From Escherichia coli O157:H7 (GTDB lineage Bacteria > Pseudomonadota > Gammaproteobacteria > Enterobacterales > Enterobacteriaceae): a DNA stretch of 64,000 nucleotides. The DNA is taken from NCBI RefSeq assembly GCF_013167455.1, contig NZ_CP038328.1. One strand, given 5' to 3'. Made by a program: the position numbers and the translations under genes. This document shows, one piece after another, positions 6,948-60,558 of this stretch. How positions within the stretch are numbered: position 1 is the first letter of the stretch; each line of letters opens with the position of its first letter. Below the pieces are notes generated by a model. That model saw only the letters and a list, made by a program, of their open reading frames with translations, had not been told where the DNA came from and searched no databases.

Positions 6948-8258
6948 ATGTTTGATTCGACTTTAAATCCGTTATGGCAGCGTTACATCCTCGCCGTTCA
7001 GGAGGAAGTAAAACCGGCGCTGGGATGTACTGAACCGATTTCACTGGCGCTGGCGGCGGCGGTTGCTGCGGCAGAACTGGAAGGTCCGGTTGAACGTGTA
7101 GAAGCCTGGGTTTCGCCAAATCTGATGAAGAACGGTCTGGGCGTCACCGTTCCCGGCACGGGAATGGTGGGGCTGCCGATTGCGGCGGCGCTGGGGGCGT
7201 TAGGTGGAAATGCCAACGCCGGGCTGGAAGTGCTGAAAGACGCAACTGCGCAGGCAATTGCCGATGCCAAAGCACTGCTGGCGGCGGGGAAAGTCTCCGT
7301 TAAGATCCAGGAACCTTGCAATGAAATCCTCTTCTCACGCGCCAAAGTCTGGAACGGTGAGAAGTGGGCGTGTGTCACTATCGTCGGCGGGCATACCAAC
7401 ATTGTGCATATTGAGACGCACGATGGTGTGGTGTTTACCCAGCAGGCGTGTGTGGCAGAGGGCGAGCAAGAGTCTCCGCTATCGGTGCTTTCCAGAACGA
7501 CGCTGGCTGAGATCCTGAAGTTCGTCAATGAAGTCCCGTTTGCGGCGATCCGCTTTATTCTCGATTCCGCGAAGCTAAATTGTGCGTTATCGCAGGAAGG
7601 TTTGAGCGGTAAGTGGGGGCTGCATATTGGCGCGACGCTGGAAAAACAGTGCGAGCGCGGTTTGCTGGCGAAAGATCTCTCTTCATCCATTGTGATTCGT
7701 ACCAGCGCGGCATCCGATGCGCGTATGGGCGGCGCCACGCTTCCGGCAATGAGTAACTCCGGCTCGGGTAACCAGGGGATCACCGCAACAATGCCCGTGG
7801 TGGTGGTAGCAGAACACTTCGGAGCGGATGATGAACGGCTGGCGCGTGCGCTGATGCTTTCTCATTTGAGCGCAATTTACATCCATAACCAGTTACCGCG
7901 TTTGTCTGCGCTGTGTGCCGCAACGACCGCAGCAATGGGGGCCGCCGCCGGGATGGCATGGCTGGTGGATGGGCGTTATGAAACCATCTCGATGGCGATC
8001 AGCAGTATGATCGGCGATGTCAGCGGCATGATTTGCGATGGTGCGTCGAACAGCTGCGCGATGAAGGTTTCGACCAGTGCTTCGGCTGCGTGGAAAGCGG
8101 TGTTAATGGCGCTGGATGATACCGCCGTGACCGGCAATGAAGGGATCGTGGCGCATGATGTTGAGCAGTCGATTGCCAACCTGTGTGCGTTAGCAAGCCA
8201 TTCGATGCAGCAAACGGATCGGCAGATTATCGAGATTATGGCGAGCAAGGCCAGATAA
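6948..8258 (+). CDS. yhaM: L-cysteine desulfidase YhaM (alias CyuA)
   Basis: 436 aa; conserved cysteines ([11 protein letters not shown]); gene order yhaO-yhaM. Confidence 0.85.
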
Positions 8259-8279
8259 ACGCCAGGTTTTGGGTATCGT

Positions 8280-8384
8280 GCCGGATGCGATGCTGGCGCA
8301 TCTTATCCGGCCTACGGGTTGTTTAATTCGTTAATGTTGTTGGATTTTGTAGGCCGGATAAGGCGTTTTCGCCGCATCCGGCAA
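8280..8384. repeat. REP/BIME palindromic elements (two inverted REP units)
   Basis: GCCGGATGCG...CTTATCCGGCCTAC and GTAGGCCGGATAAGGCG...GCATCCGGCAA consensus REP sequences. Confidence 0.75.
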
Positions 8385-8391
8385 CCTGTCT

Positions 8392-8559
8392 TTACGCGGT
8401 AGCTTCATCCTCGGCTAAACGCGTTTCAGCATCCGCGACGATGGCTTCCAGCTCGCTCAACATCTCTTCATAGCCAAAATTTTTGGCGGTGCGAGCAGGT
8501 TCTTTCGCCACCACGGGCTTCACTGGCTGGCGCTTTTTGGCCGATTTTTTACTCATCAT
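8392..8559 (-). CDS. yhaL: Small protein YhaL (about 54 aa; not in ORF track because under 60 aa)
   Basis: Minus-strand ORF MMSKKSAKKRQPVKPVVAKEPARTAKNFGYEEMLSELEAIVADAETRLAEDEATA; AGGGAG RBS directly upstream of three consecutive ATG codons (8554-8562); exact start ambiguous. Confidence 0.65.
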   Translation of the reverse strand: MMSKKSAKKRQPVKPVVAKEPARTAKNFGYEEMLSELEAIVADAETRLAEDEATA

Positions 8560-8578
8560 CATCTCCCTGTAAAAACAA

Positions 8579-9280
8579 CTAGACAGGCAAATCTATCAGC
8601 AAAGCGCGCAGTGGGGAATCGGCAACCAGCGTAATGTTAGCCTCGTCACGAATAAACGCCCCATCACCGCAGGTCAGCGCCGCTTTCTCTTCATGATGCG
8701 TAAGCGCATGAAATTTCCCGTGAATCGATTGCAAATACGTGCGTGGCCCATGCAACTGGAAATTCGCACTTTCGCCTTTGTCGAGCACGATATGGTGCAG
8801 CCACACTTGCTGGCGTAATTGCAGGCTTCCCATCGCACCCTCTGGCGAGGCGATTAAATGCTGCTTGCCCATATTAAGCGCCAGTTTTTGAATCAGCGGA
8901 TTCTCTCGCTGCGGGCAGGCGTCCAGCCAAAGCTGCATTCGTGTTAACGGTTTGTCTTTGCTGAGATTGTGTTCGCTGTAGCTGACACCCGGCTGGGTAG
9001 AGAGCAGCAACGCCTCACCGGCGCTGGCCTGAACATGATTGCCTTCGCTGTCGCGATACTCTGCTTCTCCATCCAGAATCACATTTAAAATATCGACTTT
9101 GGGATAGGTTCGCGGCTGAAAGGCGGCACCTGGGGCCAGCACTTCCTGGTTAAGCACACGCAGGGAGGCATAGCCTAACAATTTCGGGTCGAAGTAGTGT
9201 CCAAAGGAAAAAGTATACCGGGCCTGCAACCATCCGTAGTCTGCTTGTCCACACTGCCTGGCAGTTCGGGTAGTAATCAT
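8579..9280 (-). CDS. yhaK: Pirin-like (cupin) protein YhaK
   Basis: 233 aa; divergent from LysR regulator yhaJ. Confidence 0.88.
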   Translation of the reverse strand: MITTRTARQCGQADYGWLQARYTFSFGHYFDPKLLGYASLRVLNQEVLAPGAAFQPRTYPKVDILNVILDGEAEYRDSEGNHVQASAGEALLLSTQPGVSYSEHNLSKDKPLTRMQLWLDACPQRENPLIQKLALNMGKQHLIASPEGAMGSLQLRQQVWLHHIVLDKGESANFQLHGPRTYLQSIHGKFHALTHHEEKAALTCGDGAFIRDEANITLVADSPLRALLIDLPV

Positions 9281-9384: not shown

Positions 9385-10281
9385 ATGGCCAAAGAAAGGG
9401 CATTAACGCTGGAAGCACTACGGGTTATGGATGCGATCGATCGCCGGGGCAGTTTTGCGGCGGCAGCGGATGAGCTGGGACGCGTGCCTTCCGCACTTAG
9501 CTACACCATGCAAAAACTGGAAGAAGAGCTGGATGTGGTGCTGTTTGACCGCTCGGGCCATCGCACCAAATTCACCAATGTCGGGAGGATGTTGTTGGAG
9601 CGAGGGCGCGTTTTGCTGGAAGCCGCAGATAAACTGACTACTGATGCGGAAGCTCTCGCGCGCGGTTGGGAAACGCATCTCACCATTGTGACCGAAGCGC
9701 TGGTACCGACACCTGCCTTTTTCCCGTTAATCGACAAACTGGCGGCAAAAGCCAATACCCAACTGGCAATCATCACAGAAGTGCTGGCGGGGGCGTGGGA
9801 ACGGCTGGAGCAGGGGCGGGCGGATATTGTTATCGCGCCGGATATGCATTTTCGTTCCTCGTCGGAGATCAACTCGCGCAAGCTCTATACGTTAATGAAC
9901 GTCTACGTTGCCGCGCCTGATCACCCGATTCATCAGGAGCCGGAACCGTTATCTGAAGTGACGCGTGTGAAATATCGTGGAATTGCGGTGGCGGATACCG
10001 CTCGTGAGCGCCCGGTGTTGACTGTACAGCTGCTGGACAAACAGCCGCGCTTAACGGTGAGCACGATTGAAGATAAACGTCAGGCATTACTGGCGGGGCT
10101 TGGCGTGGCGACGATGCCGTATCCGATGGTCGAAAAAGATATTGCGGAAGGGCGGTTGCGTGTCGTCAGCCCGGAATCGACCAGCGAGATCGATATTATT
10201 ATGGCCTGGCGTCGTGACAGTATGGGGGAAGCGAAATCCTGGTGTCTGCGGGAAATTCCCAAACTTTTTAACGGAAAATAA
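9385..10281 (+). CDS. yhaJ: LysR-family transcriptional regulator YhaJ
   Basis: 298 aa; N-terminal HTH (LRVMDAIDRRGSFAAAADELGRVPSALSYTMQKLE) typical of LysR family. Confidence 0.9.
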   Translation: MAKERALTLEALRVMDAIDRRGSFAAAADELGRVPSALSYTMQKLEEELDVVLFDRSGHRTKFTNVGRMLLERGRVLLEAADKLTTDAEALARGWETHLTIVTEALVPTPAFFPLIDKLAAKANTQLAIITEVLAGAWERLEQGRADIVIAPDMHFRSSSEINSRKLYTLMNVYVAAPDHPIHQEPEPLSEVTRVKYRGIAVADTARERPVLTVQLLDKQPRLTVSTIEDKRQALLAGLGVATMPYPMVEKDIAEGRLRVVSPESTSEIDIIMAWRRDSMGEAKSWCLREIPKLFNGK

Positions 10282-31959: not shown

Positions 31960-32062
31960 TTATGTGGTCGGATGAGTTCTAATTTAGCCGTCGCCGGAGA
32001 AAAGGGAAAAGGGGAGTGCGGGGTTTGTGATGGGATTCAAAAAGAATACGCCCGGTGGTAAC

Positions 32063-32452
<390 letters not shown>

Positions 32453-47018: not shown

Positions 47019-47053
47019 GTAGGCCGGATAAGGCGTTCACGCCGCATCCGGCG
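47019..47053. repeat. REP element in the yqjI-yqjH divergent region
   Basis: GTAGGCCGGATAAGGCGTTCACGCCGCATCCGGCG. Confidence 0.7.
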
Positions 47054-60431: not shown

Positions 60432-60558
60432 GTAGGCCGAATAAGGCGTTCACGCCGCGTCCGGCAATCAACGCTTGATGCGACGCTTGCGCGTCTTATC
60501 AGGCCTACAACTGTCGTTGACATGTAGCCGGATAAGGCGTTTACGCCGCATCCGGCAA
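60432..60558. repeat. BIME: three REP palindromes in alternating orientation
   Basis: GTAGGCCGAATAAGGCG...; TGATGCGACGCTTGCGCGTCTTATCAGGCCTAC; GTAGCCGGATAAGGCGTTTACGCCGCATCCGGCAA. Confidence 0.75.

Follow-up and report, generated by a model that had tools for sequence, protein, structure and literature searches.

The yhaL locus

The window, by which we mean the whole 64,000-nucleotide stretch of Escherichia coli O157:H7 DNA analysed here, carries on its minus strand the small gene yhaL. The gene and its surroundings are listed below, with the grounds for each assignment in brackets.

8392–8556, minus strand: yhaL coding sequence, 54 codons plus TAA, starting at the third ATG (RefSeq annotation and the starts of orthologues)
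8557–8562, minus strand: two additional in-frame ATGs 5' of the real yhaL start (Escherichia-specific)
8563–8568 (read 8568–8563), minus strand: Shine-Dalgarno sequence AGGGAG of yhaL, 6 nt before the third ATG
8557–8578, minus strand: yhaK-yhaL spacer of 22 nt, with no convincing promoter or terminator
8579–9280, minus strand: yhaK (pirin family/bicupin), 233 aa, upstream partner of yhaL (annotation; directly upstream in 80/80 loci)
9385–10281, plus strand: yhaJ (LysR-type activator of yhaK), divergent (annotation; divergent in 80/80 loci)
8349–8382, minus strand: REP element in full agreement with the consensus, 9 nt beyond the yhaL stop (consensus scan, palindromic arms)
8279–8315, plus strand: second REP element, inverted relative to the first (consensus scan)
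6948–8258, plus strand: cyuA (cysteine desulfidase), convergent neighbour outside the conserved module (annotation)

The 601 bases around the open reading frame match E. coli O157:H7 chromosomes at 100% identity, and in these 8392–8556 is annotated as yhaL (“protein YhaL”, WP_001295544.1), and the counterpart in K-12 MG1655, likewise of 165 nt, is b3107 (NP_417578.2, “uncharacterized protein YhaL”). Of 5426 complete E. coli genomes, 5405 have the frame together with its ribosome-binding site, at 95–100% identity, and all of the genome matches shown carry the yhaL annotation. The flagged frame is an E. coli gene with an existing annotation, yhaL, known since the first K-12 genome was annotated, and the name given to it in an earlier note made from the letters alone was correct. 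The same note described the gene as missed; this holds for the open reading frame track, from which yhaL is absent only because of a 60-aa length cut-off, but not for the annotation, as both RefSeq and K-12 have yhaL. The finding of a known gene hidden in this way matters little in itself.

At the yhaL start the minus strand reads ...ACAGGGAG ATG ATG ATG AGT AAA AAA TCG..., the three ATGs occupying 8562–8560, 8559–8557 and 8556–8554 and the frame staying open to the TAA at 8394–8392; the open reading frame listing gives it as 8392–8562, or 56 aa counted from the first ATG. The distance from AGGGAG is 0 nt for the first ATG, 3 nt for the second and 6 nt for the third, and the first two are disfavoured as starts because they lie too near the AGGGAG for it to serve as their Shine-Dalgarno sequence. 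A single start is present in yhaL of Salmonella, Citrobacter, Klebsiella indica and Dryocola, where it aligns with the third E. coli ATG and is preceded by GGAG 6–8 nt 5'. This alignment holds over 80 further species, most of them with GGAG 6–8 nt upstream, and the 81 sequences (80 loci and the window) start with ATG in 45 cases, with GTG in 28 and with TTG in 8. Judged by the orthologues, the start of yhaL is the third ATG, at 8556, which gives a protein of 54 aa and agrees with RefSeq. The frame with its AGGGAG and three in-frame ATGs had thus been read correctly, down to its end at 8392, and so had the size of about 54 aa, but the other boundary had been placed at 8559, which is the second ATG (55 aa) and one codon off the true start. 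Three ATGs in a row are seen only in the E. coli/E. albertii type; the remaining Escherichia (the cryptic clades included) have AAG ATG ATG, and genera beyond Escherichia have one start only. The additional ATGs look like something that arose recently as a by-product, not like a feature of the gene.

The REP consensus was matched seven times in the window and not at all in shuffled sequence, and the 601-nt query was found at a median of five places per genome, as against one for the yhaL frame alone. The two elements that follow yhaL are REP elements by their consensus, their imperfect palindromes and their many copies per genome. The placement of the gene between yhaK, which ends at 8579, and a REP pair (8349–8382, minus strand, and 8279–8315, plus strand) was therefore also right. 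No Rfam family matched within the yhaL coding region; the REPs themselves give sub-threshold matches to naRNA4 (RF02564, a REP-derived nucleoid-associated RNA) at 8249–8312 and 8352–8390, with 34–40 bits against a gathering threshold of 59.5. Elsewhere in the window, at 32061–32447, a 100-bp unit is repeated in tandem (3.9 copies, 93% matching), with a pair of inverted REP-like elements inside every unit; this array is a BIME-type cluster and holds four of the seven consensus matches, spaced exactly 100 bp apart. Further matches lie on the minus strand at 47019–47052 (no mismatches) and 60432–60465 (two mismatches).

Evidence that yhaL is a coding gene

With one genome scanned per species, 90 relatives were found, all from Enterobacteriaceae except for one metagenome-assembled genome labelled only “Proteobacteria”. 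The genera comprise Escherichia, Salmonella, Citrobacter, Klebsiella, Raoultella, Kluyvera, Kosakonia, Phytobacter, Trabulsiella, Buttiauxella, Cedecea, Dryocola, Pluralibacter, Franconibacter, Atlantibacter, Superficieibacter, Pseudocitrobacter and others. Eighty of these 90 loci were retained, which with the window makes 81 sequences; the frame is open in 80/80 of the retained loci and intact in 81/81 Enterobacteriaceae species.

Pairwise divergence was calculated among E. coli, Salmonella, Citrobacter, K. indica and Dryocola. Synonymous sites of yhaL are saturated across these five genera (pS 0.53–0.98), and in the C-terminal half of the gene pN is 0.05–0.21 against a pS of 0.53–0.83, while the N-terminal tail is the fastest-evolving part (pN 0.29–0.54). 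Over the whole gene, where it could be computed, dN/dS is 0.15–0.21 for yhaL and 0.04–0.11 for yhaK. Among the 81 sequences, codon entropy in the conserved helix (codons 27–48) is 0.37, 0.34 and 1.32 bits at codon positions 1, 2 and 3, so that the third position varies about four times more than the first two; the corresponding values for the tail (codons 1–26) are 1.48, 1.40 and 1.74 bits. The invariant residues L33, E35, L36, E37, A38, I39, V40 and A43 are encoded by two to six synonymous codons each. From this pattern across codon positions, and from the variety of synonymous codons, it follows that selection acts on the YhaL protein.

It could be argued that the frame has no function as a protein and is either a chance frame or one in which only the act of translation matters, for example by shielding the 3' end of the yhaK mRNA ahead of the REPs. 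Frames of this size are indeed common by chance, 54 of at least 20 aa overlapping the surrounding 3 kb, and the yhaL frame taken alone is thus not beyond chance expectation; low expression and the lack of a phenotype in Salmonella screens, as well as the lack of a known function, would also fit. The conservation of the frame does exceed chance, however, with purifying selection at the amino-acid level over about 20 genera in which synonymous sites are saturated, and with frame and Shine-Dalgarno sequence kept in 81/81 species. The codon-position pattern excludes a non-coding or chance explanation, and we consider a frame that does not act as a protein extremely improbable.

Translation has been observed for the orthologue in Salmonella SL1344, STsORF102 (54 aa), which was positive both by Ribo-seq and by sPepFinder (PMC10117436, Table S1); its expression was low, it was classed as “independent” and it had no significant effect in infection or TraDIS (PMC10117436). 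An older Tn5 study of Salmonella lists yhaL as “under selection” (PMC3487940), but little weight is given to this entry, as the target is only 165 nt long and the later TraDIS column shows no effect. On the evidence of these comparisons yhaL is a real coding gene. The two checks proposed in the earlier note, ribosome profiling and conservation, have thus both come out in its favour, the former for the Salmonella orthologue; the lack of conservation in related genomes that would have spoken against the gene was not seen, the frame being intact and under purifying selection.

Two side observations concern the ends of the family and its neighbourhood. In YhaL orthologues from Superficieibacter and an Enterobacteriaceae metagenome-assembled genome (loci L015, 2501–2698; L018, 2501–2695; L054, 2501–2674) the C-terminus is 10–14 residues longer (...PDGAALSRTV, ...PDKTALSRD), which looks like read-through into REP-like sequence further downstream, the usual stop having been lost. 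Table S1 of PMC10117436 also holds the Ribo-seq-positive STsORF101 (45 aa; SL1344 3418253–3418390), antisense to yqjK and a few kb from yhaL; its E. coli counterpart carries an in-frame stop.

Architecture of the YhaL protein

The protein falls into two parts of contrasting character.

8479–8556, minus strand: YhaL codons 1–26, a disordered, Lys/Arg-rich, fast-evolving tail (AlphaFold2 pLDDT 57–72 and codon entropy)
8395–8478, minus strand: YhaL codons 27–54, an acidic amphipathic helix (AlphaFold2, codon entropy and heptad register)

AlphaFold2, run on the YhaL family alignment, predicts residues 1–28 to be disordered and residues 29–53 to form one helix, with a pLDDT of about 90 over 31–50. 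The Lys-rich N-terminus and acidic C-terminus noticed earlier are both present, residues 1–26 having nine Lys/Arg and one Glu and the C-terminal part nine Asp/Glu and one Arg. The tail begins M-S-K-K and has a net charge of +4 to +8 in most species, but of about 0 in eight, mainly of the Kosakonia type. The helix has a charge of -7 to -9 and spans about 3.5 heptads (YEEMLSE LEAIVAD AETRLAE DEATA), with hydrophobic residues at a, d and e and Glu/Asp at b and g. The family motif [FL]-G-[YF]-[ED]-[ED]-M-L-x-E-L-E-A-I-V is present in the window protein, and within it lies the invariant core MLxELEAIV (M32 L33 x E35 L36 E37 A38 I39 V40). As invariant residues in positions 32–40 are found on every face of the helix, this suggests a helix that is enclosed, or is recognised specifically from several sides, beyond mere amphipathicity.

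A protein that acts mainly through its Lys-rich tail, in association with nucleic acid or the ribosome, and uses the helix for self-association would account for the net charge of +4 to +8 in most species and for the conserved M-S-K-K start, and the segregation of charge (about +8/-8) would permit head-to-tail association; the yhaL transcript is also raised in long-term stationary phase (PMC7406224). Nevertheless, the tail is the fastest-evolving part of the protein and has lost its charge in eight species, whereas the helix is invariant; it is the helix, therefore, and not the basic tail, that is under selection. A function centred on the tail thus appears distinctly unlikely. For work on the E. 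coli y-ome the useful point is that the functional part of YhaL is the acidic helix of 3.5 heptads with its invariant nine-residue core, and that the conspicuous Lys-rich tail is not the conserved part. A small membrane protein or type I toxin was also considered and rejected, there being no hydrophobic stretch, a mean hydropathy of about 0 for the helix and nine acidic residues.

When the YhaL profile was searched against 1.84 billion representative proteins, 76 hits were obtained (E<=1e-3), nearly all of them proteins of about 50–60 aa, and by this measure the YhaL family is small and self-contained. Sequence searches of Pfam, NCBIfam and the PDB gave no family at significance, and the top PDB matches (citrate lyase and a gyrase fusion; E 0.3–0.65) were set aside as chance matches. 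The longer profile hits P0109, P0130 and P0144 are multi-stretch matches, and in P0079 a frameshift has joined the C-terminus of YhaK to YhaL; apart from P0109, P0130 and P0144, the profile hits gave no indication of a pirin-YhaL fusion of a kind that would speak for gene fission. Some database “homologues” from assembled sequencing runs (P0064, P0084 and P0100) show A to V, P to F/L and T to I changes systematically throughout (e.g., MSKKLVKKRQSVKFVVAKEFVRIVKNFGYEEMLSELEVIVADVETRLVEDEVIA), which is the pattern expected of C to T converted reads, as from bisulfite-type libraries, and not of real variants; sequences of this type were omitted from the alignments.

Gene context and regulation

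In all 80 loci yhaK and yhaL lie on the same strand with a gap of 13–35 nt (22 nt in the window). The downstream neighbour is not kept in this way, cyuA being found there in only 38/80 loci and murA in Dryocola. As the upstream order is retained in 80/80 loci while the downstream neighbour varies, yhaJ and the divergent pair yhaK-yhaL constitute a conserved unit, and on the species sampled this module is confined to the Enterobacteriaceae; Serratia, Yersinia and Erwinia are among the Enterobacterales without YhaL. A scan of the spacer for promoters and terminators gave one weak promoter-like match (9/12), not above shuffled sequence, and no intrinsic terminator was found 3' of yhaL on the minus strand. 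Since the spacer holds no convincing promoter or terminator, it is likely from the spacing that yhaK and yhaL are co-transcribed. A leader peptide or upstream regulatory frame was rejected, as yhaL is the last gene in its direction and is followed by the REPs and a convergent gene.

Hydroquinone or the products of DNT lead YhaJ to activate the yhaK promoter, and deletion of yhaK leads to a 66-fold higher induction of yqjF (PMC5031710). The yhaK deletion used is of the Keio type and lies 22 nt upstream of yhaL; polarity on yhaL is not considered in that paper. Given that yhaL is selected at the protein level and belongs to a strictly conserved module, published phenotypes of yhaK deletions, such as the 66-fold induction of yqjF, could include polar effects on yhaL.

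Supplements on the YhaJ regulon mention yhaK but not yhaL, and in the literature searched no functional study of yhaL was found, nor relevant work on yhaK and yhaL as a pair. The view of the earlier note that the function is unknown agrees with a review of the y-ome, which counts yhaL among the uncharacterised genes and describes it as “followed by repeat sites” (PMC11551758). In addition, yhaL and cyuA are listed as a convergent pair with overlapping transcription (PMC12288877), and a truncated yhaL occurred, together with many other mutations, in one fluoroquinolone-evolved line (PMC12363166).

Proposed role of YhaL

The best explanation of these observations, and one we hold to be highly probable, is that yhaL is a real gene whose product is a translated, cytosolic protein of 54 residues. 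The mechanistic part, that YhaL binds a partner through its helix and is co-expressed with YhaK under the control of YhaJ, is put forward more tentatively, the odds being somewhat against it. According to this proposal yhaL would be co-transcribed with yhaK from the YhaJ-activated promoter, and YhaL would as a consequence be produced during hydroquinone, nitro-aromatic or redox stress. The helix would be the binding module, packing into a helical bundle or groove of the partner, perhaps in a manner resembling the packing of helix 1 of XseB, the small subunit of exonuclease VII, on a basic helix of XseA, and the tail would serve as an electrostatic appendage of variable kind.

The most likely candidates for the partner are within the YhaJ/YhaK module. 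Docking on YhaK was modelled with AlphaFold2 as a YhaK-(G4S)5-YhaL fusion with a 25-residue linker, on a species-paired alignment of 27 rows; in this model YhaK is a bicupin and the YhaL tail is disordered (pLDDT < 40). The pLDDT of the YhaL helix is 83/79 in the fusion as against 92/86 when YhaL is modelled alone, and since confidence in the helix was not gained, the model gives no support for docking on YhaK; as a weak test, with a shallow alignment and neither PAE nor coordinates, it does not count against docking either. The helix core is 100% invariant, compared with an identity of about 80% for YhaK, and the target could thus be more conserved than YhaK.

Similarity to the small subunit of exonuclease VII

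Outside its own family, YhaL resembles helix 1 of XseB only, weakly but not at random. Six different NCBIfam models of XseB are the commonest matches of YhaL family members, being found for up to 13 of 39 with a best E of 2.5e-4, but the score of YhaL against them is about 14 bits (14.4) where the cut-offs are 71–92, and the family cut-off is therefore not reached. Pfam PF02609 (Exonuc_VII_S) was not reported for YhaL even at E<=10, BLASTP gave no alignment with E. coli XseB, the YhaL profile retrieved no XseB chain from the PDB at E<=10, and among the 76 hits of the 1.84-billion-protein search (E<=1e-3), surveyed as a set, no protein of XseB length stands out. Alignment of the YhaL family with enterobacterial XseB by hhalign gave a probability of 62% and a P-value of 7.7e-5 over 13–17 columns, pairing FGYEEMLSELEAIVADA of YhaL with ASFEKALSELEQIVTRL of XseB (Y29–A43 with F11–L25) and with L-S-E-L-E-x-I-V common to both. 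None of 600 column-shuffled controls (mean about 10, maximum 19.7) reached the score of 25.6, so that composition alone does not explain the match; the pairwise P-value overstates its significance, though, because XseB was chosen post hoc as the top match. Of what would mark YhaL as an XseB, then, the helix-1 motif is present, whereas the score falls short of the family cut-off and the two-helix hairpin is lacking.

XseB is an acidic hairpin that joins basic stretches of the XseA rod to make three-helix bundles (PMC10835039). YhaL might accordingly be pictured as a one-helix offshoot or mimic of XseB that engages the basic XseA rod or competes with XseB, linking quinone stress to exonuclease VII. 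Besides the matches to the NCBIfam models, the hhalign score and the binding of basic XseA helices by the acidic hairpin, this picture draws on the M-x-K-K start of both proteins and on the name “exonuclease VII small subunit” that one source (JGI) gives to a YhaL homologue of E. marmotae; two reports add, as anecdote, that yhaL was truncated in fluoroquinolone-evolved lines (PMC12363166) and that exonuclease VII repairs quinolone damage (PMC7929499). Against it stand a score of 14 bits where 71–92 are required and the missing Pfam, BLASTP and PDB matches, the single helix without a hairpin, a gene that sits with yhaK and never with xseA or xseB, the post hoc choice that inflates the P-value, and the fact that the fluoroquinolone mutation was one of many and lies beside REP repeats. 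An offshoot or mimic of XseB is thus unlikely.

There is also a bolder version, in which YhaL is a fragment of XseB (helix 1 only) that was recruited to the YhaJ quinone-stress regulon, the acidic helix of the induced protein inserting into three-helix bundles of the XseB type on XseA, or into some other basic helical rod, and so tuning exonuclease VII; this we regard as very improbable. Exonuclease VII is the enzyme that removes trapped gyrase-DNA adducts, and the fragment reading, if true, would make YhaL a small-protein link from quinone or redox stress to the repair of DNA-protein crosslinks. Our preferred reading remains that of a helix-mediated binding protein co-expressed with YhaK, for which the packing of XseB is, by analogy, a reasonable model of how the acidic heptad helix may bind its partner, although this model in itself does not point to XseA as that partner.

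Comparison with known systems

YhaL of K-12 is the same gene as that of the window, with the same neighbours, length and start codon, and nothing of substance differs; the database entries nearest to K-12 YhaL have Leu at residue 5 where the window protein has Ser. STsORF102 (SL1344_RS16730) of Salmonella Typhimurium is the orthologue, also of 54 aa, about 70% identical and in the same place after yhaK, but its tail differs in sequence and it has no extra upstream ATGs. The REP/BIME elements of E. coli are matched in consensus by the inverted copies 3' of the yhaL stop; this pair is not part of yhaL and sits between the convergent yhaL and cyuA. XseB (PF02609, TIGR01280) is, like YhaL, short, acidic and helical with an M-x-K-K start, and F-E-x-A-L-S-E-L-E-x-I-V of its helix 1 aligns with Y-E-E-M-L-S-E-L-E-A-I-V of YhaL. 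However, XseB is a two-helix hairpin of 80 aa encoded in the context xseB-ispA-dxs, whereas YhaL has one helix, the protein ending where the turn of XseB begins, and is encoded next to yhaK and never with xseA or xseB. The similarity to helix 1 of XseB nevertheless offers those working on the y-ome a lead that is cheap and testable.
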